Shown here in pieces: positions 16,781-41,238 of a stretch of 43,306 bases of DNA. A model generated the notes under the pieces. It did no database searches and was not told the DNA's origin. It saw only the letters and a program-made list of their open reading frames with translations. The first letter of the stretch is position 1; every line of letters starts with the position of its first letter. The stretch is from a virus (Duplodnaviria > Heunggongvirae > Uroviricota > Caudoviricetes): the IMG/VR virus record IMGVR_UViG_3300025133_000025, one strand, 5' to 3'. Made by a program: the position numbers and the translations under genes.

Positions 16781-16791
16781 CTCAACACTCT

Positions 16792-26614: not shown

Positions 26615-26643
26615 ACTTACCTTGAGGTTTAATTTGTAAGATT

Positions 26644-26652
26644 ATTATACCA
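26644..26652 (-). promoter_or_regulatory. Extended -10 promoter element TGGTATAAT (minus strand) for the nuclease gene
   Basis: The reverse complement of 26644-26652 is TGGTATAAT, about 30 nt upstream of the ATG at 26614; it is the same extended -10 as in the cassette promoters but lacks the TTTCCG upstream box. Confidence 0.4.
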
Positions 26653-26695
26653 CGCAGTTCGTTTAAATGAATAAGAAAAGTCACAGGAGCTAGCA

Positions 26696-27004
26696 ATGGA
26701 ACCAATTACAATCAGCATCGGAGCAGGAGTATTTGCAATTGTTAGTGCAATAGGCACGGGCATCACTGTTTATTACAAGCTCAAGATGTCTTTTGACACA
26801 GATCTAGATGACGCCATTGAAAAGCGTGTGAAAGAATCAGAAGCGAAAAACGAACTTCGAATGCAAGCGATTGAAATCAAACACAGCGCGCTGGCTAGTG
26901 TCAGTGTTAAAAAAGAAGATCTTGCTACCGTCAGCGCAAATATCGCTCACCTAACTACGTTAGTTGAAGACCTTAAGCGCATGATTCAGAACAATAATAA
27001 CTAA
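26696..27004 (+). CDS. Small membrane / coiled-coil protein
   Basis: 102 aa; N-terminal hydrophobic helix ITISIGAGVFAIVSAIGTGITVYY; SD AGGAG 8 nt upstream. Confidence 0.5.
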   Translation: MEPITISIGAGVFAIVSAIGTGITVYYKLKMSFDTDLDDAIEKRVKESEAKNELRMQAIEIKHSALASVSVKKEDLATVSANIAHLTTLVEDLKRMIQNNNN

Positions 27005-27100
27005 CCGAGTAGAAGTGGTCCAGTGCGGCCATTCTTTGTCTCTACCCTACCTTGCCTTGCACAACTGCAAGTATGATTTACAGTAACAATTTCTGAATTG

Positions 27101-27520
27101 TCATCCTTCTTCTGTGGCAAGCTTCGTGTCTCGTAGATCGGCGCTCCACAATTTGGACACTGACTCGCGCGCTTTGCGCCTGCTGTTAGGACTGTTTGGT
27201 TTTCCGGCATTTCCTGCTCTTCTCCATAATTCTTCTCTGTTGTTTGACCAGCGCTTATATTCGCTGTTGACAACATTTGCTTTAAGCCACAGTTCATCTC
27301 CGCGATGTAGTAACTCTTTATTTGGGCTATCATAAACTCCGCAATGCCCAATAACTTCAACCTTATAAGCTTTAAGAGCAAAGTCATACTCAACAAGCTT
27401 CAAAGTTACATAGATTGCAAAACCGCGGTTTGATGACTTTCTAGGTGATTTAATGATGTCGTGATATGAAACGTTATCAATGACAAATGTTTCGCCGTCA
27501 GAAATGTTGTGGCGGTTCAC
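27101..27520 (-). CDS. Hypothetical protein (possible frameshift partner of the 27001-27396 frame)
   Basis: 139 aa; ATGA coupling to the upstream gene at 27517-27520; see the finding on overlapping frames. Confidence 0.45.
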   Translation of the reverse strand: MNRHNISDGETFVIDNVSYHDIIKSPRKSSNRGFAIYVTLKLVEYDFALKAYKVEVIGHCGVYDSPNKELLHRGDELWLKANVVNSEYKRWSNNREELWRRAGNAGKPNSPNSRRKARESVSKLWSADLRDTKLATEEG

Positions 27521-27810
27521 TGACCTGGTAAGATGATGCGACTCCGATTGTCGCGTTGCTCAGCTAGTAAAAGATTATCTTGAACGCGGTCGTAAATAAT
27601 TCCAATAACATTCTCAGCCTTAATGGCTCTTGTGGCTTCTATAACAAATTCAACTGCAGTTTGAAACGCATCCATGAGATTTTCATCTGAGTGCTGTTTT
27701 ACAATTTCGTCAGCAGTATATTCAAATTTTGGATCAATCCGCGCCATCATTGCAGAGAGGATTACATTCTCAAGTTCCATTTCAATCTGTGTCTTTTCAA
27801 CTGTAGCCAT
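27517..27810 (-). CDS. Hypothetical protein
   Basis: 97 aa; first gene leftward of the AT-rich divergent region. Confidence 0.5.
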   Translation of the reverse strand: MATVEKTQIEMELENVILSAMMARIDPKFEYTADEIVKQHSDENLMDAFQTAVEFVIEATRAIKAENVIGIIYDRVQDNLLLAEQRDNRSRIILPGQ

Positions 27811-28076
27811 AAATCGTATGTCCTTCTATAATTCCATTGTATAACAAGCAGCCAGATGTGTAACAAGACTTTATTTTCATCAAAGTTTGTTTCCATATTC
27901 CTGTCAGTAATGCAACAATATAAAAAGTAAAGTAAAGCACTTCAATTATCTGTTGATTCATTATCCTTAAATACTAAATCTGAATTGGTATTACATCTAC
28001 TCACTTTATAGTTCCAACACTTTCAATTTGTATTACAATATCAATATGAATCTATTAACTCATAGGAGTCTTTAAA
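27811..28076. promoter_or_regulatory. AT-rich divergent intergenic control region
   Basis: 266 bp of about 25% GC between the leftward (27810) and rightward (28077) gene blocks, with multiple TATAAT/TACAAT-like hexamers on both strands. Confidence 0.45.
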
Positions 28077-28349
28077 ATGACTGAAGGTCTGATCAACGAA
28101 CTCGCGCAGCATGACGCAGAAAATGAAATCAAAAAGATTATAAATGTCAGTAGAGACGATGTAATCGGCATTGTAACCGAAAGGCTTATGAAGACCTTTG
28201 CAGCACAAGATGTAGTTGACTGCCCAAAATATTTTGTAAATATTACTGAGGATCCGAAGAAGTTTATGCAGTTTATTTTTGCAGGTGACCCTGTAGGATC
28301 TACTGAAAACTTTGGGGAAGTGCGCGACCTTTTGCAGGATGAATCGTAG
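28077..28349 (+). CDS. Hypothetical protein
   Basis: 90 aa; SD TAGGAG upstream. Confidence 0.5.
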   Translation: MTEGLINELAQHDAENEIKKIINVSRDDVIGIVTERLMKTFAAQDVVDCPKYFVNITEDPKKFMQFIFAGDPVGSTENFGEVRDLLQDES

Positions 28350-28545
28350 ACATTTTGTGCATTCTTCGGCGGATTTTGGCCCGAATCCTCTCTTCAGGAC
28401 TCTTTGATTCATCAAATGCCTCTTCGCCGTGAAATTGCAGCCATTCTTCCTCAGTTGAGGGTGGCGAAACATACTGTTTCCCACCATAATCTCGAACTGT
28501 TCCCAGAACTTCATTCATACAATAGGTAGTGAAAAAAGTATGCAA
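28300..28545 (-). CDS. Questionable small ORF (antisense to a plus-strand block)
   Basis: 81-aa ORF starting with TTG; protein-like composition but no RBS; it fills a 190-nt gap between plus-strand genes. Confidence 0.2.
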   Translation of the reverse strand: MHTFFTTYCMNEVLGTVRDYGGKQYVSPPSTEEEWLQFHGEEAFDESKSPEERIRAKIRRRMHKMSTIHPAKGRALPQSFQ

Positions 28546-28845
28546 GAGGCCGCCAAATGTGAATGGTGCAGTGAAATACTGCCAAAACCAAGCTTGACCG
28601 AGTGTAAAACGTGTACAGAGCTTATTAAAGACATGGATTTGACAATGTTTGCCGGTCCAGATCCTCGGCCAGTTCTTCGAGAATTTCGAAAAGGAAATGC
28701 TGTTAGCGTTACCTTTGGTAAACCCAGCAAAGGCGAAACTCTTGGTGAAAGACTGACAAGAAATCTTTACGCAGCTGAATTTGAAAAGCTTTTAAACGAA
28801 AGCGATCTACCATTTACCATTGAAAGGATCGGAAATGACACCTGA
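28540..28845 (+). CDS. Zinc-ribbon protein
   Basis: CEWC...x13...CKTC N-terminal Cys4 pattern; 101 aa. Confidence 0.5.
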   Translation: MQEAAKCEWCSEILPKPSLTECKTCTELIKDMDLTMFAGPDPRPVLREFRKGNAVSVTFGKPSKGETLGERLTRNLYAAEFEKLLNESDLPFTIERIGNDT

Positions 28846-29413
28846 CTTTTATATCTTGATTGATCTTGAGGCAACATGCTGGAGAGGCGGAAAGCCAAGG
28901 AGGTCGGAGATTATTGAGATTGGCGCCACCTGTATTGATTCAAAAACGCTCGATGTTGTCGATAAATTTCAGACATTTGTAAAACCCGTTGTTAACCCGA
29001 TTTTAAGTGAGTTCTGTAATGAGCTGACGACCATCGAGCAGACTGACGTAGACAATGCACCAGAATTCTCTGTGGCAATGTCGATGTTTTATGGCTGGGT
29101 TGACGAGAAAGAAGGAAGCTGGCTGTGGGGCTCTTGGGGAGATTATGACCGTAGGATGTTTGAGCGTGATTGCCAATTTAAGAAGGTTGAATATTTATTC
29201 CCCGCCCACTTCAACGTGAAAGTTGAATTTGGAGAATGGGAAAGAAATGTCTTCAGGCCAGACGGGAAAACGAAGGGGTGGGGAATGGCAAAAGCACTTG
29301 CAAAGCTAAACATGACCCTGGAGGGTGTCCCCCACCGCGCAGACTCTGACGCACTTAATATTTCACGTATCTTCAAGCATATTCGAACGCGGACTGATCT
29401 ACTTAAGGCGTAA
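28820..29413 (+). CDS. DEDDh 3'-5' exonuclease (DnaQ/ERI-1-like)
   Basis: Exo I motif ILIDLEATCW (D-x-E), and GVPHRADSDALN (H-x4-D Exo III of DEDDh). Confidence 0.65.
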   Translation: MKGSEMTPDFYILIDLEATCWRGGKPRRSEIIEIGATCIDSKTLDVVDKFQTFVKPVVNPILSEFCNELTTIEQTDVDNAPEFSVAMSMFYGWVDEKEGSWLWGSWGDYDRRMFERDCQFKKVEYLFPAHFNVKVEFGEWERNVFRPDGKTKGWGMAKALAKLNMTLEGVPHRADSDALNISRIFKHIRTRTDLLKA

Positions 29414-29697
29414 TGGACACCATGCAACACATTGTACAACAGCTGCGTAATCTCGGCCTCCCAGCCGATGTTACTGACAGGGGTGAGTTCATTATGGAAG
29501 GTGGTATTATTCTTCGAACTGCAGTTCCTGGGAAGGGTCTTCTTGAGACTTATCGCCAAATTTATCCGGCCGGGCTTGACATTCTTGTTGATGAGCTGGC
29601 GTCAGCTGTTCACAATGAGGTTGATGAAATTCGGAGATCTGGGAATGCAGGGCGGCCAATGTTTTCAGATCTGCTTAAGCAACTTAACCTTAAGTAA
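29413..29697 (+). CDS. Hypothetical protein
   Basis: 94 aa; ATG overlaps the preceding TAA (TAATG). Confidence 0.5.
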   Translation: MDTMQHIVQQLRNLGLPADVTDRGEFIMEGGIILRTAVPGKGLLETYRQIYPAGLDILVDELASAVHNEVDEIRRSGNAGRPMFSDLLKQLNLK

Positions 29698-29826
29698 AAT
29701 ATATCACTTCCTGCCATCTAGAAGCAGAAACACTTGGCAGAATTTGAATGTTTAAAATCATTAATAAAGAGACAACCAGCTAGTAATTTCGTTAAACATT
29801 TTCGCTAATTAGAAAGGCTTTGTATC

Positions 29827-30108
29827 ATGCAAGATATTGAAACAAAAACAACACGCATTCCAATTCGAGAAGCCCGCAAGGTGATCGGTCTCACAGAAAA
29901 AATTCCAATCTTTGATAATGGTGATGGAATTGTTCTTGTAAGTAAATTCATTCTGGATGAAAATTTGCTTCCAAATGACAGCCATGCGCTGCAAGCAAAA
30001 AGCCTTATTGACTTGATGGCTCGTCGCCGCCCAACTGACACAGTTGATATTCCAGAGCGAGGGTGGGATGCAATCATGGTTGAATACAAAAAGTGGACTG
30101 ACCCGTAA
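29827..30108 (+). CDS. Hypothetical protein
   Basis: 93-aa ORF after a 129-bp AT-rich spacer. Confidence 0.5.
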   Translation: MQDIETKTTRIPIREARKVIGLTEKIPIFDNGDGIVLVSKFILDENLLPNDSHALQAKSLIDLMARRRPTDTVDIPERGWDAIMVEYKKWTDP

Positions 30109-30152
30109 TACTTTTAAATTTCTGAGCAATTAAGAAAGTATTACAATTAAAT

Positions 30153-30578
30153 ATGGGAACACCATTAATCCAATTGATCACACTGTTTGCCTGCTTGGTG
30201 GGCTTTATAGTTTTTATCCTCTACCTTCGTGGAGAAACTGAGGAAGAAACTGGTGAAGTTGTTGCGCTTCCAATACTCAAAGCACGATTTCCACCACTGT
30301 TGACCGCTGCTGAGATTATCTCTGCGGTCCAGCCGATGATGACTGGTACACCGGGTCACTTCTATTTTGTGGATGAGGCGGGTGAACCAATTGGTGATCG
30401 CGATTCACCAAAATCTGTTGAAGAGTTAGAACTTGAGTATCTACAAAAATCTGCAGATAGAGAGCGCCACAGTCACTGGGCATATTGCGTTAGCTGTGAC
30501 TGGAATGATGAAGGTTACCAAGCCTTAACAGATGATGGTGAGTATGCTTGCCCGCTTTGCGGCAGTAATATAACATGA
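30153..30578 (+). CDS. Membrane-anchored protein with a C-terminal zinc ribbon
   Basis: N-terminal TM helix LIQLITLFACLVGFIVFILYL; C-terminal CVSC...x19...CPLC. Confidence 0.5.
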   Translation: MGTPLIQLITLFACLVGFIVFILYLRGETEEETGEVVALPILKARFPPLLTAAEIISAVQPMMTGTPGHFYFVDEAGEPIGDRDSPKSVEELELEYLQKSADRERHSHWAYCVSCDWNDEGYQALTDDGEYACPLCGSNIT

Positions 30579-30676
30579 AAATTCGCTGGACAACACTCTT
30601 TTGCTGGAGTATGATTGTTCTTTGGATTTTAACATTCTTTGGAGGTTGTTTCATAGCAGCCTTCCTAGCAGCCTAG
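30575..30676 (+). CDS. Possible 33-aa hydrophobic peptide
   Basis: ATGA overlap with the preceding stop; encodes MKIRWTTLFCWSMIVLWILTFFGGCFIAAFLAA; not in the ORF track because it is under 60 aa. Confidence 0.3.
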   Translation: MKIRWTTLFCWSMIVLWILTFFGGCFIAAFLAA

Positions 30677-30682
30677 GCCAAT

Positions 30683-30895
30683 ATGCAACCTGTAGCAATC
30701 TATAAATGCTCGCATTGTAGTTATGAGTGGTCTGCCGTTGTCCAACAGGGCTTTTCGCCGCAAAATTGCCCAAAATGTAAGTTAAATTACTTCGAATGGG
30801 TGAATTATGACGATCTGGAGGCCTCTGGTATCTTTGAGATGAGTCCAGATGAAATTTCTGGTGAACCTTCATGTAAAATAAAGATTGGCACTTAA
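30683..30895 (+). CDS. Zinc-ribbon protein
   Basis: 70 aa; CSHC...x17...CPKC. Confidence 0.45.
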   Translation: MQPVAIYKCSHCSYEWSAVVQQGFSPQNCPKCKLNYFEWVNYDDLEASGIFEMSPDEISGEPSCKIKIGT

Positions 30896-30904
30896 GGAAT
30901 AGAG

Positions 30905-31144
30905 ATGACATATACAATTTTGAGAAAGCAAGAAAGTGCTGAGTTTACTCGTATTATTGAATTTCGCTTCGCGTTTTCATCATTTACACACACAGAGGAT
31001 ATTGAGAATGCAATTGAAGAAGCATTGTATCACATTCGTTGTCACGGGCAAGCAGGGCAGATCGGCGAAGAGGGGCGAATTAATGCGGCGTTTGACAAGA
31101 TCAAAATCAGCGAATTGGCAAGTGCCAGTTGGGAAAAGCAGTGA
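30905..31144 (+). CDS. Hypothetical protein
   Basis: 79 aa; SD AAGGAA upstream. Confidence 0.5.
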   Translation: MTYTILRKQESAEFTRIIEFRFAFSSFTHTEDIENAIEEALYHIRCHGQAGQIGEEGRINAAFDKIKISELASASWEKQ

Positions 31145-31294
31145 GTCCTGAAACGGAGCAATTGCTGGCCATTTTAAAAGAAATTGCCAGTACGGGTGAT
31201 TTACAAGAAGTTTATGATATTATGCCTGACTGCGGAGCTCCGCTGGACGCGGCGGTATGGAATTGGATTGAGGCAGGTTGCCCAGACGCTGATT
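31141..31294 (+). CDS. Possible small ORF (GTG start)
   Basis: GTGA overlap with the preceding stop; 51 aa ending at the TAG at 31292-31294, convergent with the kinase operon end. Confidence 0.25.
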
Positions 31295-32600
31295 AGTGAA
31301 AGCGAAACAGGCCAAGGTCAGCTGCGACAATTGCTCTGTCTGTCGGGCGAATAAGAACATTACCTCTATGCAAATCAACGAAGCGCATTCCATGTTTTTC
31401 GTACATGTAGTGAAGTGCATTCACAAGACCTGAGAGTCCTGACTTCTCCGCAGTTTTTTTCTGCATTTTCAAGATTGCATCCTGCGTTTCTGGATCTTTA
31501 CTTCCTTTAAAGTCTCTAGCAAAATACGCGCCAGCCTTATCAGCAATGCCATGTGCCTTCCAAGTTTGATGCTTGTCGTAACCCTTTGGCACAATCCCAG
31601 TTCGGACGCCAATCTTAACAGAGGCGTCCAGCCACTTTTTAAATTTAGGTATACCCTGTTCATTTTGCGACAGATCAGCAAATTTCCGCATATGCTGCGC
31701 GAAAGTCTCGGCGACCTTGTCACTAAGATTTAATGATTTGTAAAGCGCCTTAAGGATGATTGCAACCTTATCATCATCTTTCATTGCAATCCATAATAGA
31801 TCTTCTTTTGCTTCGCCATGCGGATTCTTTGGCCCCTTTGGGGCTTTTGGAATTTCCCATGGCTTTTCAATGCGTTTCAAATATTCACCAGCCTTGACAG
31901 CACCTGGAAGTTCATCAAGCTTCTCCATTAGAACAATGGGAAATTCTTTTCCAGTTCGCCTGATAAGCCAGACGCCATAAATCTTCGGAAAGTGTTTAGC
32001 GACATCTGGTGGCAATTGTTCATACAGGTTAGCAATGGTCTTATACGGTTCGATGTTGTCAGCACGGTTCGATGTGGGAATTTTTAATGCCATGGCCTGG
32101 CCGTTGTCAGGCATAAATTCAAAGACTGTGCCAAATGCACCGATGCCAAGAAAGGCGCCGACATCACCGGGCGGAAGAATCTTTTGCATGTGCCCTGAAA
32201 AAGCTTCGCCCTTTTCTTGACTAAAATATGTAGATGACGCACGCTTCAAGAAATCGTTTGAAAGATTAGCAGGGTTTTTCTTTGACGGCGTTTCAAGATC
32301 CGGATCGACGTAGATGGCGACTGCAGTCGGTTCCTGACCATGCTTTGTATCCAGGCTTCCACCCCTCCGCCGCCTCCTTCCGCCTACAGGCACTGTAGCT
32401 GGAAGTTCCTCTGCATTGATTGGACCGTGTGATGTAGGCGGCGTCTCAGGCCAGTCTTCCTTTTCTGCAACAAGGCCTGAATATTCCTTAACAACAGTTA
32501 CTGATATACTGTCAACATCATCATCTTCCTGATCATAGATATTTTCAATTACGCGATTGTAATTTTCAAGTGCGAGGAGCTGTGTTATTGTTGGAAACAT
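31293..32600 (-). CDS. Protein-kinase-like fold protein K1 (truncated ePK-like; ends 6 aa after the DLG)
   Basis: Gly-loop LGIGAFGTVFEF, AMALKI (VAIK-like Lys), catalytic loop VDLHRGNVLI, Mg-binding VAADLGLFRFH at the extreme C-terminus. Confidence 0.6.
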   Translation of the reverse strand: MFPTITQLLALENYNRVIENIYDQEDDDVDSISVTVVKEYSGLVAEKEDWPETPPTSHGPINAEELPATVPVGGRRRRRGGSLDTKHGQEPTAVAIYVDPDLETPSKKNPANLSNDFLKRASSTYFSQEKGEAFSGHMQKILPPGDVGAFLGIGAFGTVFEFMPDNGQAMALKIPTSNRADNIEPYKTIANLYEQLPPDVAKHFPKIYGVWLIRRTGKEFPIVLMEKLDELPGAVKAGEYLKRIEKPWEIPKAPKGPKNPHGEAKEDLLWIAMKDDDKVAIILKALYKSLNLSDKVAETFAQHMRKFADLSQNEQGIPKFKKWLDASVKIGVRTGIVPKGYDKHQTWKAHGIADKAGAYFARDFKGSKDPETQDAILKMQKKTAEKSGLSGLVNALHYMYEKHGMRFVDLHRGNVLIRPTDRAIVAADLGLFRFH

Positions 32601-33349
32601 TAGCGGAAAAGTCCAATATCTGAGACAACAAGCGATTTGTCAGTCGGGCGCACCATTATATTGCCGTGGTGCAGATCGTCAGGTTCGATATTCTGAAAAT
32701 CGATTAAATCTTCCATGGCATGATAGAACGTCGCCACACCTATGAACTCTGCAGTTGCAGCGTCAACATTTGACGTAAGGCTATAATCTGGTAGTTTGCC
32801 GGTTATAATCGCTTTACGCAGTAATTTCTCCATTTTGATCGGGAGAGGTTCAAGATATTCCATAAGGGTAATGACAAGACCTGAGTCAGGAATAAGCCAC
32901 GCTGCAGAAGGTCGACCTGATTCAGGAATAAGCCACGCAGCATAGATTTTCGGGAGGTGGCGGGCAGTTCCAGGCTTCGACGTGCCCTTTGCACGGGCCA
33001 CAAGTTTGTAAGCATCCGGCTCATCCTCACTGATTTTCAACGCCATCCTCGGCCCATGATCGGGAACGAAGTCCCAAACAACACCATAGGACCCCTGTCC
33101 AAGTACATCCTTGATTGTTCCTGCAGGCAAAAGTTGCTCCAGAGCAGACCTTACGTCAGCAGTGAAAATGCTATCGCGCGGAATACCATCAACATGCCCG
33201 GGTTCTGCAAGGGTCGGATCAACATAGATTTCTTTATATGCAAGATTTTGCACATGACCTGTTCGGGCACCTTGTTGTTCAAGCAATTGAACCATTGTAG
33301 GAAGCAGATCAATCATATTTGTAGAAGTTACCGATGTCAGCAACAACAA
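32600..33349 (-). CDS. Protein-kinase-like fold protein K2 (paralog; ends right after the DIG)
   Basis: LGQGSYGVVWDF, RMALKI, HLPKIYAAW, ITLMEYLEPLP, DDLHHGNIMVRPTD, VVSDIGLFR-stop. Confidence 0.6.
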   Translation of the reverse strand: MLLLTSVTSTNMIDLLPTMVQLLEQQGARTGHVQNLAYKEIYVDPTLAEPGHVDGIPRDSIFTADVRSALEQLLPAGTIKDVLGQGSYGVVWDFVPDHGPRMALKISEDEPDAYKLVARAKGTSKPGTARHLPKIYAAWLIPESGRPSAAWLIPDSGLVITLMEYLEPLPIKMEKLLRKAIITGKLPDYSLTSNVDAATAEFIGVATFYHAMEDLIDFQNIEPDDLHHGNIMVRPTDKSLVVSDIGLFR

Positions 33350-34283
33350 GGTGCCCGTCAGATTTACGAACCATTACATTATCATCATGCAAGTCCTGCC
33401 AGCTTATGCCATATCTTTCATGAATCTCTCTCAGCGCTTCGTAAAATGGCAGGATACCGAGAGATTCAAGTTTATCGTCACCTTCATCACCCAGGTTCTT
33501 CCAATGCGCACGAGATGTTGGAGTTATAGTGAGCATCGCCCGGTTATAATCAAACACATCAAGTGAGTTGTGCATTCTTGGCCCGGGCCTAATTCCAACC
33601 TCCTTGGCGGAATCAATAATCGCATCACGCAATCGAGCAGCCTGAGCATCATCCTCAAAATCATGGGGAGCGTTGAGGTTGTATGTTCGGCGAAGTCCTG
33701 CCACAGCGTGAGGCAATCGCTCTACCAATTCCGGCCGTGTTTCTGTATCAAGCAGGCCGAGGGTGATTCGCATAAGCCGGCCAACACGTTTATCACTTTG
33801 CACAAATTCTTCCCATGACATCCTATTTTCAGGATCCCCGCGGACCATGGCTGTCTTAATATTCTTTGGAAGCGGCGACAGGATTTCCATAAGCGTTATA
33901 ACAGTTTCTGTATCGACAGACCAAATGCCATAGATTTTCGGGAGGTGGCGAATCAGTTCCCGCGGCGCTGTGTCGTAAATCTTTTGAATTTCTTCGTAGG
34001 CCTCCGGCTCATCCTCACTGATTTTCAATGCCATCATAGGTCCATCGTCAGGCTTGAAACGGTAGACAGTACCAAATGAACCAGCGCCGAGGCGGGTCTC
34101 TACAACCCCGGGTGGCAGCACGTCAGCAAGGGGCGCCGGGGCGAGCCGATGTCCCCGAAGAAGACGAAGATCAACAGATCCTGGACCCTTGTTAATTTCC
34201 AGTTCTGGTGACACAAAGATTTCCTTTGTTGAAGCTGCCTTTGCAGCTTCAACAACCAGGGTTTTCATTGTGGGAAATGTCAT
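33309..34283 (-). CDS. Protein-kinase-like fold protein K3 (paralog)
   Basis: LGAGSFGTVYRF (canonical GxGxFGxV), MMALKI, HLPKIYGIW, ITLMEILSPLP, QDLHDDNVMV, VVADIGNFYKYD-stop. Confidence 0.6.
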   Translation of the reverse strand: MTFPTMKTLVVEAAKAASTKEIFVSPELEINKGPGSVDLRLLRGHRLAPAPLADVLPPGVVETRLGAGSFGTVYRFKPDDGPMMALKISEDEPEAYEEIQKIYDTAPRELIRHLPKIYGIWSVDTETVITLMEILSPLPKNIKTAMVRGDPENRMSWEEFVQSDKRVGRLMRITLGLLDTETRPELVERLPHAVAGLRRTYNLNAPHDFEDDAQAARLRDAIIDSAKEVGIRPGPRMHNSLDVFDYNRAMLTITPTSRAHWKNLGDEGDDKLESLGILPFYEALREIHERYGISWQDLHDDNVMVRKSDGHLVVADIGNFYKYD

Positions 34284-35326
34284 ACAAATTCACCGATGTC
34301 AGACACAACAACGTCGTTTGTTCCAGCGCGCATCATGATGTTATCTGTTTTAAGGTCATGCCAATCAACATTATGCTTACTTGATATATATTCGAGCGTC
34401 GCGTAAAATGTACGAAGACCTGTTTTGGAGAGATAGTCAAAGTGCCTTTCCATTTCCCTTGAATCCGTTGGTTTCGATGTAGGAAGCATAACAGCTGTGG
34501 CAGCAGCAGAAGTCCAGGTGTGGGACATGAACTGCGTTAAGCGTTTAATCTCACTCGCATGCTCGGGATGTAGTTGAACAAGGAGATTGGCGATGAGTCC
34601 GGCGAAGGCCTCGGCTTGGGCCTGTGTTGGAGGTGTTTCTGAAAATCTCCAGCGTTTTCGAATTTGCGGAATGAGCTCATCTGCAACGACAGCATAGAGG
34701 TTTGGAATGATGCTGTGTAGTCGAAAAATTCCCTCGTAAACGTATGCTGCAATATTTGCATCATCAGCAATCCATTTTGACCAGTCAGGTTCATGACCAT
34801 GATATTCTTCATATTCAAAGAATCCGTCAAGGGCGTTCTGAATGGAGATGGGGAGTTTGCTGAGATGTTCCATCAAAATTACTGTTAGGGTTGTATTCTG
34901 CAGGGCCAATTCCCAGACGCCGAAAATCTTTGGGAGGTGCCTGCTGTGCAGTTCAGGGAGTTGCCCACGAATGGCATATACGTCGTCGTATGGTTTGGTA
35001 TCGTCGTCACCGATTTTCACAACCATAAGCGGTCCGAAATCCGGTTTAAATTCAAAAACAGAGCTGTGCGCTCCAGCACCTACATATTCACCCACATCAC
35101 CTGGTGGTAAAACGTTTTGTAAGGTCTGGAACACTATTTTATCAACCCTGGGAACACCCAGGTGGTCAGTGGCCCGATCGGCTGTGCGAAGTGCGTCCTG
35201 GATGCTAACAGTGGATTTCGTGCCAGCTGGACGGATCTCGTCGCGGATAATTTCCTTGACCGCAATTTTGTTGTTGTCACCCCTGGGCGACAGTTCTGTC
35301 AACAGGTTATGCATTGTGGGGAGCAT
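34280..35326 (-). CDS. Protein-kinase-like fold protein K4 (paralog; start uncertain)
   Basis: VGAGAHSSVFEF, LMVVKI, HLPKIFGVW, VILMEHLSKLP, HDLKTDNIMM (compare HRDLKPEN), VVVSDIGEFV-stop. The start was set at the Met (MLPTMHN) at 35326; the open frame continues to 35806, but that part translates tandem DNA repeats. Confidence 0.5.
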   Translation of the reverse strand: MLPTMHNLLTELSPRGDNNKIAVKEIIRDEIRPAGTKSTVSIQDALRTADRATDHLGVPRVDKIVFQTLQNVLPPGDVGEYVGAGAHSSVFEFKPDFGPLMVVKIGDDDTKPYDDVYAIRGQLPELHSRHLPKIFGVWELALQNTTLTVILMEHLSKLPISIQNALDGFFEYEEYHGHEPDWSKWIADDANIAAYVYEGIFRLHSIIPNLYAVVADELIPQIRKRWRFSETPPTQAQAEAFAGLIANLLVQLHPEHASEIKRLTQFMSHTWTSAAATAVMLPTSKPTDSREMERHFDYLSKTGLRTFYATLEYISSKHNVDWHDLKTDNIMMRAGTNDVVVSDIGEFV

Positions 35327-35402
35327 AACATATATAGTGTCCACGCTGCCATCTATGCCATGGTGTTTCGTGGCAACGATTTTTTCCAGAAATTTTTGTG
35401 CT

Positions 35403-35486
35403 GGCAGGGCTGTTCTGGTGGTGCAATCCTGGCAGAGCTGTTCTGGTGGTGCAATCCTGGCAGAGCTGTTCTGGTGGTGCAAATTC
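35403..35486. repeat. 28-bp tandem direct repeat x3 (GGCAGAGCTGTTCTGGTGGTGCAATCCT)
   Basis: Three head-to-tail copies; copy 1 has 1 mismatch and copy 3 diverges in its last 5 nt. Confidence 0.85.
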
Positions 35487-35698
35487 TCGAGAAGTTGTGC
35501 AGAGGCGTTGCGCGGCTTCGAGGCCTTTCTAAATCTCCAACAACCTATCTGAGGCCTTTCCGCAGGCCCTCGCCGGCCCGAGCTGGGTTGCGCCGACGGG
35601 CGGCTAGAAGGTCCCAACCTGGTATGGAAAGGCCCTGAGGGTGGTGTGGGGCAGGCCTTTCCATGGCGCCAGCACCAAGGCATGCCGTGCCGGCGAGG

Positions 35699-35806
35699 GC
35701 CTATCTTTCCGCAGGGCCTCCGACCACAAGATAGGTCTATCTTTCCGCAGGGCCTCCGACCACAAGATAGGCCTATCTTTCCGCAGGGCCTCCGACCACC
35801 AACCAC
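35699..35806. repeat. 36-bp tandem direct repeat x3 carrying the CTTTCCGCAG promoter upstream box
   Basis: GCCTATCTTTCCGCAGGGCCTCCGACCACAAGATAG x3. A fourth partial unit continues into promoter P1. Further degenerate copies of GGCCTTTCC(G/A) lie at 35554 and 35656. Confidence 0.85.
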
Positions 35807-35909: not shown

Positions 35910-36299
35910 ATGGCCAAGTGGAACCCCAGCTCGAAGGTGAACCAGAGCCACCTCCTGACCATCCTGCGCCGCGGCGGCAACGAGTACCTCGACATCGTCG
36001 AGCGCCTCTCCCACCGGGCCCAGAAGCCCAACGGTCCTGACGGCCTGAACGTGACCATCATCCGGGATGCGATCGAGCAGGGCTACCTCGCTACGGATGC
36101 TGAGGCCATCCTGTTCCCCTCCGAGGAGAACGTGAACAAGGCCAAGGTGGCCGCGGCCGAGGATGCCAAGGCGACGATGATCGACAACCTCCTGGAGCTC
36201 GGGCAGCAGGGAGCGGTCAACGCGATGATCCAGGCGGGGACGGTCAGCGCGGAGCTGGTCGCCGGCATCGAGGCCAGCCGGGCCGCCGAAGAGGCCTAG
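35910..36299 (+). CDS. MAK-family small protein, paralog 1 (unknown function)
   Basis: 129 aa; MAKWNPSSKVNQSH N-terminus shared with 3 other cassette ORFs; SD GGAGA 9 nt upstream; about 65% GC. Confidence 0.65.
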   Translation: MAKWNPSSKVNQSHLLTILRRGGNEYLDIVERLSHRAQKPNGPDGLNVTIIRDAIEQGYLATDAEAILFPSEENVNKAKVAAAEDAKATMIDNLLELGQQGAVNAMIQAGTVSAELVAGIEASRAAEEA

Positions 36300-36307
36300 G
36301 CCTGACA

Positions 36308-36336
36308 GGGCCGGCGGGGGCAACACCCGCCGGCCC
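36308..36336 (+). terminator. GC-rich hairpin (11-bp stem) after cassette 1
   Basis: GGGCCGGCGGG-gcaacac-CCCGCCGGCCC; no U-tract, so this may be an intrinsic-terminator variant or a processing/recombination site. Confidence 0.4.
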
Positions 36337-36393
36337 ACCCGTCTGGAGCTGGTCTCACCGGTCCTCAACCTCTCGGCTCCTCCACCCGGAGGG

Positions 36394-36413
36394 CCGAAGG
36401 TCCGGACCTTCGG
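36394..36413. repeat. Perfect 20-bp palindrome CCGAAGGTCCGGACCTTCGG
   Basis: Exact inverted repeat with no loop, in the inter-cassette spacer. Confidence 0.8.
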
Positions 36414-36469
36414 AGCCTAGGCTTTCCGCAGCCCTGCTGCCTAGGCCTTACAGCGTGGGCTGAGCTGGC

Positions 36470-36498
36470 TTTCCGCGGCACCACTGAAATGGTACAAT
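36470..36498 (+). promoter_or_regulatory. Cassette promoter P2: TTTCCG-N17-TACAAT with TGG upstream
   Basis: ggcTTTCCGcggcaccactgaaaTGGTACAAT; a near-duplicate of P3 including the downstream AAGGACGG(A/T)GGCCA. Confidence 0.6.
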
Positions 36499-36556
36499 AT
36501 AATTACAAGGACGGAGGCCATCATACAGATGGGCTGCCGATCCGACTGGAGCCACC

Positions 36557-36967
36557 ATGGCCAAGAAGAACCGCTGGAACCCCTCCTCCAAGGTCAACTG
36601 CAACCACGTCACGGGCATGCTCGCCAAGGGCACGGCGGAGTACAAGGACTGGGTCGGCCGGGCCTTCTCCGTCCCCGCCGACGCCGACGCCGAGTACTTC
36701 GAGGACATCATCCGCGAGGGCCACGAGGACGGCTACCTCACCGATGAGAATGTGGACACCCTGCTGGGTACGGGCCCCTCGACGAAGGACGTCCAGGCCG
36801 CCGCCGCCGGCAACGCCCAGGCCCAGATGATCTCCGGGCTGGCCAACGCCGGGCAGCACAGCGCGGTGGCCTCCATGATCGGCACGACCGTCTCGCAGGA
36901 CCAGGTCGACCAGGTCTACGAGGCGCTCAACCTGGACTTCGCCGCCTTGACCGCGCCGGAGGCCTAG
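36557..36967 (+). CDS. MAK-family small protein, paralog 2
   Basis: 136 aa; MAKKNRWNPSSKVNCNHVTGMLAKG...; the overlapping +/- ORFs at 36489-37024 are rejected as GC artefacts. Confidence 0.65.
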   Translation: MAKKNRWNPSSKVNCNHVTGMLAKGTAEYKDWVGRAFSVPADADAEYFEDIIREGHEDGYLTDENVDTLLGTGPSTKDVQAAAAGNAQAQMISGLANAGQHSAVASMIGTTVSQDQVDQVYEALNLDFAALTAPEA

Positions 36968-37049
36968 CCGGCCCAACCCTTCGCCCCGAGCACCATCGAA
37001 GCCATCGGCTACTAGCACCACCACAGTCGGCCTAGCAGGGAGGAGACTC

Positions 37050-37088
37050 TCTGTTAGGCCGGCCTAACAGCGACTGAGCAGCTCAGTC
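37050..37088. repeat. Two adjacent perfect palindromes (CTGTTAGGCCGGCCTAACAG; CGACTGAGC-a-GCTCAGTCG)
   Basis: A 20-bp exact palindrome followed directly by a 19-bp one, in the spacer after cassette 2. Confidence 0.8.
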
Positions 37089-37097
37089 GATTTAAGG

Positions 37098-37126
37098 TTT
37101 CCGCCGCACCACCGACTTGGTATAAT
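37098..37126 (+). promoter_or_regulatory. Cassette promoter P3: TTTCCG-N17-TATAAT with TGG upstream
   Basis: ggTTTCCGccgcaccaccgactTGGTATAAT. Confidence 0.6.
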
Positions 37127-37187
37127 TTAGGTATAAGGACGGTGGCCACCAAAACGGTGAATCACTGCTCCCGTTGGAGAATGAGAC

Positions 37188-37622
37188 ATGGCCAAGAAGA
37201 ACCGCTGGAATCCTGCCTCGCGTGTCAACTGCAACCACCTCACGGGGATGCTCCTGAAGGGCGACGACGCGTACCGGGACTTCGTCTCCCGCGCCTTCTC
37301 CGCCGCCCCCGAGGAGTTCGAGGCGATCGTCCAGGAGGGCCTCGACTGGGGGTACTTCACCTCGGACAACCGGGACGCCTTGCTCGGCACCGGCCCCTCC
37401 ACGGCCGCGATCTCGGAAGCCGCGGCGGGCAACGCCCAGGCGACGATGATCTCCGGCCTCGCCAACGCCGGCCAGCACAGCGCGGTGGCCTCCCTCGTCG
37501 CCGCCGGGACCTGCACCCAGGACCAGGTCGACCAGGTGTACGGCGCCTTGGAGCTGGACTACGCGGCCCTGATCGCCCCGCCGGCCCCCAAGGCGCCCAA
37601 GGCCAAGAAGGCCGCCAAGTAG
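37188..37622 (+). CDS. MAK-family small protein, paralog 3
   Basis: 144 aa; MAKKNRWNPASRVNCNHLTGMLLKG...; SD GGAGA upstream; Lys-rich C-terminal tail PKAPKAKKAAK. Confidence 0.65.
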   Translation: MAKKNRWNPASRVNCNHLTGMLLKGDDAYRDFVSRAFSAAPEEFEAIVQEGLDWGYFTSDNRDALLGTGPSTAAISEAAAGNAQATMISGLANAGQHSAVASLVAAGTCTQDQVDQVYGALELDYAALIAPPAPKAPKAKKAAK

Positions 37623-37642
37623 CCTAGCCGGCTGCCACTGAC

Positions 37643-37667
37643 GGACCGGCCCCTCCTGGGCCGGTCC
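37643..37667 (+). terminator. GC-rich hairpin (10-bp stem) after cassette 3
   Basis: GGACCGGCCC-ctcct-GGGCCGGTCC; followed by GGCCTTACAGCG and GGCCTAACAGCG half-site copies. Confidence 0.4.
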
Positions 37668-37767
37668 ACCGGCTGGGCCTTACAGCGTGAGCTGCGCGAA
37701 CGCTGATAGTCCTCTCTGAGCCGGCCTAACAGCGCGGGCTGAGCCCGCCGTCACAGTGCCACGAGGC

Positions 37768-37796
37768 TTTCCGCAGCAGGCCAACCATGGTATAAT
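37768..37796 (+). promoter_or_regulatory. Cassette promoter P4: TTTCCG-N17-TATAAT with TGG upstream
   Basis: ggcTTTCCGcagcaggccaaccaTGGTATAAT. Confidence 0.6.
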
Positions 37797-37829
37797 TTAG
37801 GTACCGGAATTGACCGGCTGGAGAACCCC

Positions 37830-38531
37830 ATGATCGATGCACTTACAATCTTCAACGCTTCCACGGATCGGCGGACCTACTGGCGCCTGAATCGTGAGGC
37901 GGGCGCTGCTACCCTGGATGAGGCGATCGCCTTGACCTGGGAGGACTTCTACCCGTACGAGCACATGCCCCAGGATGACGCCATCAACATGGATGGCATG
38001 GACGACATCTTCGAGGTCGGTGGACCGGAGAACATGGAGATCGTGACCCACGGCGGCGGGTGGTTCACCGTGGAGTACAAGAACGGTTGCTCCCAGGAGG
38101 AGGACACCCGCGACCACCCGGAGGAGTGGAACCAGTGGGAACAGGTCACCCGCCTCGTCAGCCAGGACTACCTCACCTTGGAGCGTGGGTTCACCGTCCT
38201 GGACGATACCCCGGCCGGCCACGGCGACGAGTTCGGTCGGATCTACTGGGTGATCGGCGACACCACGGAGCCGGGGACGGTCGATCGGAAGCCCAAGGTG
38301 CTCACCGGTGATGAGGTCATCGAGCGGTCGATCAAGGAGGGCATCCGGTCCGACCTCGAGTTGGAACAGCAGGTCCTGCCGCCGGTCGATCACCGGTGGA
38401 ACGACATGATGATGCAGAGCGCCGCCCTGGACATCCTGGCTGGTGTGACCATGGCCAGCATCCGCTACCACAGCTACGACGCCTGGGAGGATGTGGAGAT
38501 GCTGACCCGCCACTTCCACGGCAAGATCTAG
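37830..38531 (+). CDS. Acidic hypothetical protein (233 aa) in the cassette array
   Basis: SD GGAGAA upstream; D/E/W-rich; no family recognised; the antisense ORF 37797-38555 is rejected. Confidence 0.6.
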   Translation: MIDALTIFNASTDRRTYWRLNREAGAATLDEAIALTWEDFYPYEHMPQDDAINMDGMDDIFEVGGPENMEIVTHGGGWFTVEYKNGCSQEEDTRDHPEEWNQWEQVTRLVSQDYLTLERGFTVLDDTPAGHGDEFGRIYWVIGDTTEPGTVDRKPKVLTGDEVIERSIKEGIRSDLELEQQVLPPVDHRWNDMMMQSAALDILAGVTMASIRYHSYDAWEDVEMLTRHFHGKI

Positions 38532-38576
38532 AAGCCTCACCAGCTGGCTCAGCACCTGCGGCCTGGGGTAGCCTGG

Positions 38577-38598
38577 GCCGTAAGGCCGGCCTTACGGC
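38577..38598. repeat. Perfect 22-bp palindrome GCCGTAAGGCCGGCCTTACGGC
   Basis: Exact inverted repeat centred on GGCCGGCC, in the spacer after cassette 4. Confidence 0.8.
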
Positions 38599-38653
38599 GA
38601 AGAACAGCTCAGCCCCTCCCTTTCCTCCATACTTGGAAGCACAGACCGGCATG

Positions 38654-38682
38654 TTTCCGATGCATGACCGCCATGGTATAAT
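38654..38682 (+). promoter_or_regulatory. Cassette promoter P5: TTTCCG-N17-TATAAT with TGG upstream
   Basis: gTTTCCGatgcatgaccgccaTGGTATAATatattAGGAACCCC; a near-duplicate of P8. Confidence 0.6.
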
Positions 38683-38763
38683 ATATTAGGAACCCCGGCC
38701 GGTTGAATCAATGCCATGGCAGATGGCTGTCATGGCAACTGGCCACCTACTACAGGAAGTGAC

Positions 38764-39591
38764 ATGAACTGGAATAGCATCGCAAATGACCTTGACATCT
38801 GGAACAGTGGTGGGAAGATGAAGGCGACGATCTCGCTCTTCTTGAACAGCCCCGGCATCAGCCACGCCCTGTACATCATCTTCCTCGCTGTCTACGGTGG
38901 CTGGAACATGTTGTCGACCGCCGCGCTCCGCCAGGAGCCTGGCCCGTCGGCGTCCCAGAAGTACGAGTTGACCGACTACGTCAACAAGGACACCATCCTC
39001 AGCATCGTCAACGACGCCCGTCAGAAGGCCTGGAGCGATCTGGAGATCAGTGGTATCATGCCCGAGTGGAAGGTGGGCGGCATGGCGGAGCCGGCCTGCG
39101 CGATCCGGCCGGGCGAGGACAATCCAACCCTTGTCTTCAACAAGATCCAGTTCATCAAGCAGGTGCGTGAGGCCCACGGCTTGGGACTGAAGGAAGCGAA
39201 GAAGGCTGTGGAAGACATGTTGGTGCAGGCTTCCGGGCTCGTCGCCTTCCGTGGAGTCCGTGGGAAGCTCATTGAGCACATGCCGACGACTTTCCTCCAC
39301 ATCACGAACGTCCACATCAATCTCGACGAGCTCGTCTCCCTGCCCATCAACTATCGGCCGCATGCCTACGAAGGAGAGCGCAGGTCGCGTGACAACTCGA
39401 CCAGCGATGACACCTTCTACACGGTGGGGTGGTACTGGGAGAACGTGCTCTCCTTCGAGAACAAGCGACTCTTCCGGAGCTTGGACCACTTCCGAAGCAC
39501 GTCCATCGCAGTGAAGCGGCGCGCCCAGTACCTCAACCACGAGGGTGCCTGGGTTTACGTCGATGATGTCGCCACCGAAATCCTTGCCTGA
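38764..39591 (+). CDS. Membrane-anchored protein with a ribosomal bL12 (L7/L12) C-terminal-domain-like segment
   Basis: The start was chosen at MNWNS (SD AGGAAG 5 nt upstream); the longer frame starts at 38716. TM helix [45 protein letters not shown] aligns to E. coli bL12 [26 protein letters not shown] (GLGLKEAK identical). Confidence 0.55.
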   Translation: [275 protein letters not shown]

Positions 39592-39613
39592 GTGAAGGGG
39601 TTCCTCGGCGAGG

Positions 39614-39653
39614 GGCCCTGGGCCTGCTGTCTTCGGATGGCAGGCCCAGGGCC
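39614..39653 (+). terminator. GC-rich hairpin (14-bp stem) after cassette 5
   Basis: GGCCCTGGGCCTGC-tgtcttcggatg-GCAGGCCCAGGGCC. Confidence 0.45.
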
Positions 39654-39693
39654 TATTAGCGCTTCGCGCCGAAGGCCCCAAGACGCAGCTGGC

Positions 39694-39722
39694 TTTCCGC
39701 CGATCTACCGTGTTTGTATAAT
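39694..39722 (+). promoter_or_regulatory. Cassette promoter P6: TTTCCG-N17-TATAAT (TG adjacent)
   Basis: ggcTTTCCGccgatctaccgtgtttgTATAAT; downstream ATAAGGGGCGC resembles the P1 leader. Confidence 0.55.
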
Positions 39723-39743
39723 AATACTATAAGGGGCGCAGGT

Positions 39744-39759
39744 GCTGAAATATTTCAGC
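39744..39759. promoter_or_regulatory. Perfect 16-bp palindrome GCTGAAATATTTCAGC in the P6 leader (operator-like or leader hairpin)
   Basis: Exact inverted repeat about 15-30 nt downstream of the predicted TSS and 25 nt upstream of the SD; a second CTGAAA...TTTCAG palindrome lies at 40265. Confidence 0.45.
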
Positions 39760-39794
39760 AGTTGTTATAAACAGCCCCGACATGGAGAGAAGAC

Positions 39795-40190
39795 ATGGCT
39801 AAGAACCGCTGGAACCCTTCGAGCAAGGTCAACTGCAATCACATCACCGGGATGATCGCCAAGGGTGACGCCGAGTACAAGGACTGGGTCGCCCGGATCT
39901 TCGGCTCGAACAACGACACCTTCGCCGACCTGGTGACCGAGGGCAAGACCGCGGGCTACCTCACCGCCGAGAACTCCAACTTCCTGCTGGGCACGTCGGC
40001 CAGCACCCCGGCTGTGAAGGCGGCCGCCGCGGCCGACGCCAAGCGCAGCATGGTCATCGGCCTGCTGGGTGCGGGACAGGACACGGCGGTCGATTCGCTG
40101 ATCCAGTCCGGGCAGGTGGACCAGGAGTTCGTCGACAGCATCCGCGCGGAAATCGTGGATGCTGAGGAAGCTCGCCGCTCGTCGAAGTAG
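39795..40190 (+). CDS. MAK-family small protein, paralog 4
   Basis: 131 aa; MAKNRWNPSSKVNCNHITGMIAKGDAEYKDWVARIFG...; SD GGAGAG upstream. Confidence 0.65.
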   Translation: MAKNRWNPSSKVNCNHITGMIAKGDAEYKDWVARIFGSNNDTFADLVTEGKTAGYLTAENSNFLLGTSASTPAVKAAAAADAKRSMVIGLLGAGQDTAVDSLIQSGQVDQEFVDSIRAEIVDAEEARRSSK

Positions 40191-40198
40191 AGAAACGC

Positions 40199-40226
40199 CA
40201 GGCCGGGGGCTTCGGTCCCCGGCCGT
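40199..40226 (+). terminator. Hairpin GGCCGGGGGC-TTCG-GTCCCCGGCC (UUCG-type loop) after cassette 6
   Basis: 8-10-bp GC stem immediately after the stop; a CCGTACGG palindrome and a GCTGCTTTT run follow. Confidence 0.5.
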
Positions 40227-41238
40227 ACGGCGCTGCTTTTCAAAGCTCTTCGGCGCAGCCAGCGCTGAAAGACCGGTCTTTCAGAGAAAGCAGCTGAGCC
40301 CGCAGTCCTGGCCACAGCTCCCTGCCTGGCAACATTCCGACGCTGTCCAGCTTTCGGCAGCCTACATCACCTTCCGATGCGGCTCAGCACTGCAATGTGC
40401 TGAAAAGACTGCAATTTTGCTGCCCACTGCCCTGCCGATGCTGAATGTGAGATTCGAGGCATCTGCTCTTCGCTGCAGCAATCATATGAATACTATGCCC
40501 ATCCCGGTTTTTCACTATACCCGCCGGGATAGAAAGCAGGCTGGCCCATGCGCTGGCCTCGGCAGCCCATCGATGCAGCGGAAGCAGACGGTGTGGCGCT
40601 ATGATATCATTCCCAGCAAAACGCCACCAGACCTGCCGTGCCGCGACGCTCTGCGCTCTCCCTTCGCAACTCTGCTCCCGGCTTCTGGCGCTGCGCTCTG
40701 TAGTTGCGGGCACCACTCCACCCATTCTTGTTAGGCTTGAAAACCTTATCAGGCCATCTCGTCAGCTCCCATTTTGTGAGTTTGCATATGAATCAGTAGC
40801 GCCAGCTGTTCTTCCCTATTTGCAATGTGAAGAGCTGCTCAGTGTTGTCCGAGCTGTAGACATTTTGTTGTGTGATGTTAAAGGCTTAGGGCTCTGCTGC
40901 TGTCCCTGCAGCGTTGCTCCACCCCGCAGCGCCAAAGCAGGGAAACAGCATATGCTGATATCATAAAGCACACAGAGCTTACAGCACCAGCAGAGAAACG
41001 AGGTTTAGGAGTTGGGAGTTGTGGTATAGAACCTATCCTATTGGAGTCTATTGGTTTATCTGTTAGTTAGTTGTTGGTTCTGATACCATCAAAGGCACGT
41101 TGTATTGTAGCAAGAGTATATGAATGAGGCTGCCCAGCATTTCCGGCTGACCAAATTGGTAGGCTGCAGGGCAAGCCGCGTGAGTTCGGACTGTTGGATT
41201 GCAGTCCTGATGATATCTTCTGGCAACATCCACAGTAA
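40227..41238. other. About 1-kb apparently non-coding region with palindromes (candidate structured RNA or decayed cassettes)
   Basis: Only low-complexity R/S/P/C-rich ORFs on either strand (40159-40734, 40601-40966, 40384-40725). Contains the CTGAAAGACCGGTCTTTCAG palindrome and several short hairpins. GC is intermediate. Confidence 0.4.
40265..40284. repeat. Perfect 20-bp palindrome CTGAAAGACCGGTCTTTCAG
   Basis: Exact inverted repeat; shares CTGAAA/TTTCAG arms with the 39744 palindrome. Confidence 0.8.

Follow-up and report, generated by a model that had tools for sequence, protein, structure and literature searches.

A single alpha4-alpha5 hairpin of ribosomal protein bL12 embedded in a phage protein of an orphan family

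In phages, domains of the ribosomal stalk protein bL12 are less often free-standing than they are part of larger polypeptides, which reach 724 amino acids (aa) (Mizuno et al. 2019, Nat Commun 10:752; PMC6375957). Their position in the polypeptide varies, their genomic contexts are unrelated, and they appear to have been acquired repeatedly; a role as interfaces for translation factors was suggested (PMC6375957). One peptide of an embedded-bL12-domain phage protein was detected in 70S preparations, which is weak evidence, and a tagged phage bL12-domain protein did not co-purify with ribosomes (PMC6375957). Here we describe a gene at 38764..39591 (+) in a 43,306-nucleotide (nt) stretch of DNA, referred to as the window, from a virus of the Caudoviricetes (IMG/VR record IMGVR_UViG_3300025133_000025). 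The gene encodes a 275-aa protein, the target, with one copy of the alpha4-alpha5 hairpin of the bL12 C-terminal domain (CTD) between two unrelated regions.

Like the proteins of Mizuno et al., the target lies in a viral genome and has a significant match to Ribosomal_L12 embedded in an otherwise uncharacterised protein. Several of the published cases comprise ~65 residues (9–16% of 418–724 aa), whereas the target has the hairpin only, without the uL11-contact region, and its flanks form a separate orphan family. The target protein was not found in the supplements of that study (PMC6375957). An earlier reading of this DNA, here called the original prediction, had regarded an embedded form as unusual. 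This view cannot be kept, because phage bL12 domains had already been reported as mostly embedded (PMC6375957), and HMMER retrieved >120 non-ribosomal proteins with 2–6 copies. The target is a new orphan family within a phenomenon known since 2019, and not a new kind of system.

Compared with bacterial bL12 (RplL; TIGR00855, PF16320 plus PF00542), the target keeps all signature residues of helices 4 and 5 but lacks the N-terminal dimerisation and uL10-binding domain and a bL12-type Ala/Gly-rich hinge. Some likeness also exists to the N-terminal (UBA-like) domain of EF-Ts, a short helical module with an I-K-x-L-R-E-x-T-G-x-G pattern. The EF-Ts domain binds the G domain of EF-Tu, as seen in the EF-Tu/EF-Ts crystal structure. 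The match of the family profile to this segment (1aip_C residues 3–34) was weak (E 0.08), and bL12 is far closer (E 7e-7).

Identity and extent of the bL12 hairpin

The hairpin occupies aa 126–152 of the target (39139..39219, +), equivalent to E. coli bL12 N64–A90 by Pfam and hhalign. The original prediction had drawn attention to aa 127–152 (39142–39219), which include the octapeptide GLGLKEAK, read from the translation at aa 139–146 (39178..39201, +). It had claimed eight identical consecutive residues plus conserved flanks, and the comparison bears this out. The peptide shares 16/26 identical residues with E. coli bL12, including the eight consecutive ones, and 19/25 with Thermotoga maritima bL12. 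Target K127, I128, I131, K132, V134 and R135 correspond to E. coli bL12 K65, V66, I69, K70, V72 and R73, and target G139, L140, G141, L142, K143, E144, A145, K146, V149 and E150 correspond to G77–K84, V87 and E88.

Profile methods extend the match well beyond the octapeptide, to 27–28 columns. Pfam PF00542 (Ribosomal_L12) matched above its gathering cut-off (E 1.5e-7, 32.1 bits versus 25.9) at profile positions 11–36 of 67. With hhalign, the family alignment matched 12 full CTDs with a probability of 97.7% and E 2e-12, again over N64–A90. Searches of the family profile against bL12 chains in the PDB reached E-values down to 6.9e-7, with a confident alignment at query ~116–152 only. By these comparisons aa 126–152 are homologous to helices 4 and 5 of the bL12 CTD and derived from bL12, and the match is far beyond chance.

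No further part of the CTD is detectable. When the hhalign alignment was extended greedily (mact 0.01) or globally, the added columns had zero confidence and the score fell from 73 to 59. Profile alignment of the flanks detected neither beta1 nor beta2-alpha6-beta3 of the bL12 CTD. The uL11-contact region of bL12 is defined as K95 and alpha6 residues 103–109 (PMC3505967), and profile alignment found no alignable counterpart of it 3′ of the hairpin. The bL12 N-terminal domain (Ribosomal_L12_N) was not found; with Pfam at E ≤ 1, the whole protein matched PF00542 alone (residues 142–167 in a 291-aa reading). The bL12 equivalog TIGR00855 scored 26.3 bits against a cut-off of 84.4 and matched at positions 69–94 of 125 only. 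As judged by profile alignment, then, homology to bL12 is confined to the alpha4-alpha5 hairpin. The original prediction of a bL12 CTD mimic holds for a bL12-derived segment (32.1 bits; hhalign 97.7%) but not for the whole domain.

The open reading frame (ORF) ending at 39591 (+) has two possible starts, ATG 38716 (291 aa) and ATG 38764 (275 aa). The second was adopted because a Shine-Dalgarno-like AGGAAG (38754..38759, +; read from the sequence) lies 4 nt 5′ of it, gene callers picked it in two independent assemblies (P0001; JGI 3300006789, Logan SRR5703513), and the N-terminus from 38764 is conserved in the homologue P0002 (MSWSEIRNRLNIW). The reading from 38716 was rejected; it has no Shine-Dalgarno sequence, and the N-terminus in common with P0002 starts at 38764. 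The coding sequence thus specifies 275 aa plus a stop, identical to P0001, as the original prediction had it. The gene is identical in the two assemblies, and its GC content at third codon positions (GC3) of 0.84 is a strong coding signature. To judge from full-length conservation in two other metagenomes, its own promoter and Shine-Dalgarno sequence, and this GC3, it is a real gene.

An exhaustive HMMER search of 1.84 billion representatives recovered only two full-length relatives, both on short metagenome contigs: P0002 (283 aa, E 1.4e-14; contig L008) and P0015 (259 aa, E 1.9e-8). Each has one hairpin, as does the target, and at the same position (Pfam 21.4 bits in P0002 and 34.4 bits in P0015). 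The hairpin is the best-conserved block of the family, with 11/30 invariant columns of the three-member alignment in 27/275 residues. Directly N-terminal to it the alignment has a 14-residue insertion or deletion, and C-terminal to it lies a segment of variable length (14–24 residues), rich in Ala, Pro and Ser in the homologues. Past this variable linker a conserved block, F-x-H-I-x-N-x-H-x-x-L...P, opens the C-terminal conserved region (aa 176–275; 39289..39588, +), in which H184, L187, P194, D210, W223, Y224, F237, H242 and F243 are conserved.

Other searches did not enlarge the family. The C-terminal region has no sequence match in Pfam, PHROG, NCBIfam or the PDB, and by itself found no relatives in scans of GTDB genomes or IMG/VR. 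In word-indexed searches the full-length protein matched only itself, and the 87-aa domain segment gave zero candidates. A profile search retrieved no family member beyond P0015, its other matches being hairpin and CTD-repeat proteins, and family-profile scans of IMG/VR and metagenomes gave hairpin or true rplL matches only. Locus L023 holds a bacterial tail-anchored one-hairpin protein (10052–10399), and L028 a genuine rplL beside rplJ.

A membrane tether through one N-terminal transmembrane (TM) helix had been part of the original prediction. The candidate segment is a moderately hydrophobic helix at aa 35–55 (38866..38928, +; Kyte-Doolittle 1.3–1.6) whose best 19-residue window, at 1.6, is borderline. 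The summed Hessa insertion energy, a crude measure without position weighting, was +2.7 to +3.3 kcal/mol for the target and +2.4 to +6.8 kcal/mol for P0002 and P0015, whereas genuine anchors of bacterial hairpin-repeat proteins score −5 to 0 kcal/mol by the same method. In both homologues a K or R lies inside the hydrophobic segment. Because all three family members give positive energies, the homologue segments contain K or R, and true anchors score −5 to 0, the protein is probably soluble. The tether is not supported by these values; aa 35–55 are probably a buried helix and not an anchor, and a cytoplasmic location is predicted. AlphaFold2 places a helix at 29–43 with a predicted local distance difference test (pLDDT) score of ~60.

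The hairpin in other phage and bacterial proteins

The remaining 124 HMMER matches are similar in the hairpin only. Among 142 retrieved proteins, 137 carry 2–6 tandem copies and 77 contain a strongly hydrophobic segment, which is N-terminal in 52, C-terminal in 19 and internal in 6; these proportions are biased by an E-value threshold favouring multi-copy proteins. K or R residues lie C-terminal to the TM helix in 50/52 of the N-anchored bacterial proteins, and the hairpin repeats are therefore predicted to face the cytoplasm.

These bacterial hairpin-repeat proteins (partial PF00542; DUF6793/PF20593; NCBIfam NF005269) share with the target a module of ~28 aa that matches PF00542 at ~9–40 and is flanked by linkers. 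They differ in usually having 2–6 tandem copies and often a genuine TM anchor, whereas the target lacks a convincing anchor and holds its single copy between two unrelated regions. A large bacterial class combines a genuine N- or C-terminal TM helix with one to several tandem bL12 hairpins (P0007, P0009, P0010, P0011, P0016, P0017 and others, as well as the L023 protein). A limited literature search found no characterisation of the hairpin-only module (Ribosomal_L12/PF00542) or of the TM-anchored class. The ~28-aa unit is bounded by non-homologous or linker sequence at the same places in the target, P0003, P0007, P0009, P0128 and P0137.

The motif was found by tblastn in 108 cultured-phage records, including hypothetical proteins of Streptomyces phages, ORF7 of Ralstonia phage RSJ5, and the ‘prfA’ proteins of Otagovirus. 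Otagovirus ‘prfA’ proteins and two IMG/VR relatives have an RF-1 (PF00472) domain fused to the same hairpin. With tblastn the Otagovirus proteins rank among the phage matches nearest to the target hairpin (E 1e-3 to 3e-3) and, like the target, carry a single copy; they differ in the RF-1 fusion, and the similarity is confined to the hairpin. Judged by this range, the hairpin is a portable, free-standing module that is widespread and has been reused in many proteins of phages and bacteria.

Annotated as ‘peptide chain release factor 1’, the Otagovirus proteins of ~160 aa consist of an RF-1 domain in which GGQ reads GGM, then the single hairpin, then a Cys-rich tail. Proteins of this type are encoded at L003 1246–1725 (Pseudomonas phage VCM VCM_00181), L009 ~9750–10234 and L010 ~9740–10213. 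They may be catalytically altered ArfB/RF-like phage proteins joined to a stalk-derived module.

Possible docking of translational GTPases

The best explanation of the target, to which we assign a probability of roughly 0.35 as a whole, joins the anatomy described above to a soluble, early phage protein that docks a translational GTPase. Its parts differ in strength: the identity and anatomy are very probable on the sequence comparisons, and the docking step is tentative and rather doubtful. The target would be a soluble, cytoplasmic and probably early-expressed phage protein of three parts, namely an N-terminal region (aa 1 to ~100), the central hairpin and the C-terminal region (aa 176–275), with variable linkers on both sides of the hairpin. 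The hairpin would offer a translational GTPase a docking site of low affinity on a flexible tether; candidate partners are helix D of EF-Tu or, in EF-G, IF2 or RF3, the G/G′ domain. Through docking, the N- and C-terminal regions of the protein would reach the factor, or the stalk CTDs would face local competition. Kothe et al. in 2004 reportedly linked bL12 helices 4–5 to helix D of EF-Tu (cited in PMC5770553).

In bL12, residues 66–70 and 80–85 shift on binding of EF-G or EF4, and a similar pattern of interaction with the CTD is stated for IF2, EF-Tu, EF-G and RF3 (PMC3505967). The target hairpin spans both of these patches plus helices 4–5, and the conserved helix 4–5 residues that contact translational GTPases (E. 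coli 65–73 and 79–84) are present in it. The original prediction was thus correct in taking its peptide from the factor-contacting region. Also in favour of the explanation as a whole are the conservation of the hairpin within the family, the weak EF-Ts match, the RF-1 fusions in phages, the phage peptide in 70S preparations and the cytoplasmic orientation predicted for the N-anchored bacterial repeats, together with the promoter repeats and stem-loops of the locus. The target is not a ribosomal protein and should not join the stalk, because it has neither a uL10-binding N-terminal domain nor the rest of the CTD, including the uL11-contact region.

Several points weigh against GTPase docking by a bare hairpin. 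The whole bL12 CTD binds factors with a dissociation constant of only 0.1–0.4 mM (PMC3505967). Hairpin residues I69, V72, L78, L80, A83 and V87 are core residues in intact bL12, so their conservation may reflect folding and not partner binding. The target retains all residue classes that are conserved across the module, but the set behind the conservation table was retrieved by similarity to the target hairpin, which is an ascertainment bias. In P0002 the hairpin is degraded (G77 to D, V66 to R) and its 21.4 bits fall below the gathering cut-off. The AlphaFold2 models, with a pLDDT of 33.7 from the single sequence and 42.7 from the 3-sequence alignment, are too low in confidence to judge the fold; only the N-terminal helix and the hairpin helices at 127–138 and 142–157 reach pLDDT ~55–65. 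A cryptic, complete CTD-like fold built with non-homologous flanks may be compatible with such models. The case for early expression consists of promoter type and gene arrangement only.

The hairpin could instead be merely a stable, reusable two-helix block (a spacer, a dimerisation element or a generic protein-protein module) with no link to translation, the function residing in the N- and C-terminal regions. We consider this a serious contender, though short of an even chance. The module occurs in diverse architectures, including TM anchors, MerR-like matches, fusions to periplasmic-binding proteins (PF00497/PF12974) and HEAT-like repeats, and often in 2–6 tandem copies, like a structural repeat. 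DUF6793 and PHROGs 35727, 5819 and 26927 are all annotated ‘unknown function’, and the partly degraded hairpin of P0002 also fits a structural block. Such a block does not readily account for the surface charged residues K65, K70, R73, K81, E82 and K84, which are almost invariant across unrelated proteins and have no obvious structural role in a bare hairpin. Nor does it account for the phage fusions of the hairpin to RF-1 domains or for the hairpin being the most conserved block of the target family. That the similarity is due to chance or convergence, or that the ORF is not a gene, has a negligible likelihood. Only 27 residues match and the family is tiny, but the E-values (1.5e-7 with Pfam, 2e-12 with hhalign) oppose chance, and the ORF is full-length in two other metagenomes, has its own conserved promoter and Shine-Dalgarno sequence and a GC3 of 0.84, and is identical in two assemblies.

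Two further explanations give the target more of bL12 than the alignments do. In one, the hairpin and its non-homologous flanks form a complete, diverged bL12-CTD-like alpha/beta domain that replaces or joins the stalk CTDs; the target would then count as a viral ‘ribosomal protein’ as Mizuno et al. use the term. Short hydrophobic stretches just N-terminal to the hairpin (TLVF, MVL, LSI) and the conserved F-x-H-I...L-x-x-L block 14–24 residues past it could between them furnish strands and a helix. A partial Pfam match does not by itself prove a fragment, because ORF7 of Ralstonia phage RSJ5 (93 aa, probably a whole domain) is also under-covered, at positions 4–37; a close relative of it was handled as a whole-domain protein by Mizuno et al. 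(PMC6375957). The phage peptide in 70S fractions points the same way. Even so, a complete domain is improbable. No profile signal exists beyond the hairpin even in global alignment, the post-hairpin linker of 14–24 aa is variable and Ala/Pro/Ser-rich in the homologues, no bL12 N-terminal domain was found and TIGR00855 stays at 26.3 bits versus 84.4, and the tagged protein of Mizuno et al. did not co-purify with ribosomes (PMC6375957).

The other explanation, put forward in the original prediction, has the target tethered to the membrane as a mimic of the complete bL12 CTD, where it would sequester or relocate EF-Tu, EF-G, IF2 or RF3. In its favour are the genuine homology of the hairpin, a borderline best hydropathy window (Kyte-Doolittle 1.6) and the existence in bacteria of truly anchored hairpin-repeat proteins (77/142 with a strong TM segment); the last of these makes the concept plausible. 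For the target we regard it as highly improbable. The insertion energies of +2.4 to +6.8 kcal/mol in all three members and the K or R in the homologue segments argue against an anchor, and the hairpin, not the CTD, is all that is detectable. EF-Tu is among the most abundant cytoplasmic proteins. A single copy with the expected sub-millimolar affinity cannot sequester it, and with whole-CTD affinities of 0.1–0.4 mM, sequestration of translation factors by one hairpin is implausible (PMC3505967).

GTPase docking, if true, would be a compact example of phage reuse of the factor-recruiting surface of the stalk outside the ribosome, and the uncharacterised bacterial hairpin-repeat proteins would gain a testable function. 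A broader and unlikely extension is that the 27-residue hairpin is an autonomous, portable GTPase-docking peptide, which phages would graft onto unrelated effector domains (the target, Otagovirus RF-1) so that early in infection these reach EF-Tu, EF-G or the site on the ribosome where factors bind, and which bacteria would use in cytoplasm-facing, membrane-tethered tandem arrays that hold translation factors at the membrane. If true, extraribosomal ‘stalk-mimic’ proteins would be a widespread class that has so far gone unrecognised.

The cassette locus and its genome context

The window is a fragment of a myovirus-like phage. It encodes a baseplate wedge homologue (PHROG 219/6) with 32% identity to its nearest homologue, a protein of the cyanophage Mel-JY01 (Microcystis phage; E 7e-90), and also glycosyltransferase and kinase-like genes. 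With this homologue in the window, the phage origin claimed in the original prediction is supported. The target gene sits in its own promoter cassette. Megablast of 35–43.3 kb against cultured phages gave no match, and in the same region Rfam gave nothing above gathering scores. No tRNAs were found.

Seven copies of TTTCCG-N14-TGGTATAAT, all on the + strand, lie between 35815 and 41622, where 0.07 would be expected by chance. The target copy consists of a −35-like hexamer TTTCCG (38654..38659, +) and an extended −10 element TGGTATAAT (38674..38682, +), with a 17-nt spacer between the hexamers. By likeness to the sigma-70 consensus the repeats are putative promoters; owing to their atypical −35 hexamer they escape a generic sigma-70 scanner. 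On its contig the P0002 gene is preceded by the same promoter and leader (TGGTATAATATAT.CAGGAACCCC). A single gene follows each of six promoters, and several genes follow the seventh (41594); the target gene is the fifth cassette. In IMG/VR the promoter pattern was found 7 times, each time as a single, isolated match in an AT-rich contig, and no related arrays turned up.

A GC-rich stem-loop with an 18-bp stem and a UUCG loop follows the target gene (39614..39653, +; minimum free energy −63.4 kcal/mol for 39592–39700, z = −3.3). It has no U-tract and is a putative terminator or RNA-stabilising hairpin. Strong GC-rich stem-loops with tetraloops lie 3′ of the target gene and two neighbours, and a hairpin 3′ of the gene upstream of the target was not better than shuffled controls. 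Four paralogous cassette genes on the + strand (35910–36299, 36557–36967, 37188–37622 and 39795–40190) encode proteins of 129–144 aa that begin MAK(K)NRWNPSSKVNCNH and are 38–56% identical. They have no match in Pfam, PHROG or NCBIfam and no relatives in cultured phages or IMG/VR. The cassette locus resembles an early or host-takeover region, the timing being suggested by its organisation.

Codon composition in the window is bimodal. The six cassette genes (35910–40190, +) have a GC3 of 0.84–0.98, and the tail, baseplate and glycosyltransferase genes (276–15726 and 19364–34283, −) have 0.26–0.50, with GC1 and GC2 barely different from those of the cassette genes. An assembly chimera is not an obvious explanation, because GC falls gradually at both borders of the GC-rich part and two independent assemblies cover it. 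The early genes could be tuned to the tRNA pool of a high-GC host, or the locus could be a recently acquired island. With a GC3 of 0.84–0.98 among structural genes of ~0.3, the locus is maybe more unusual than the hairpin itself. A second, milder GC-rich island lies at 15711–19094 (−; GC 0.54–0.56, GC3 0.60–0.70), with four ORFs that have no Pfam match; the TTTCCG...TATAAT promoter is absent from this island.

Just 5′ of the first cassette promoter are two tandem arrays (35698–35805 and 35401–35484). One has 3 x 36 nt, each unit with CTATCTTTCCGCAGGGCCTCC, which has the promoter −35 motif; the second array has 3 x 28 nt. A minus-strand ORF (34280–35806), with a GTG start that is perhaps over-extended, contains the two arrays or has them at its 5′ end, and they could be regulator-binding sites. 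After the sixth cassette, ~850 nt (40200–41050) have no convincing ORF, and ORFs of 191 and 121 aa look spurious. This stretch is GC-rich at its start, contains stable hairpins (40191–40300, z = −2.9) and has no Rfam match; it could be a non-coding RNA or decayed cassettes.

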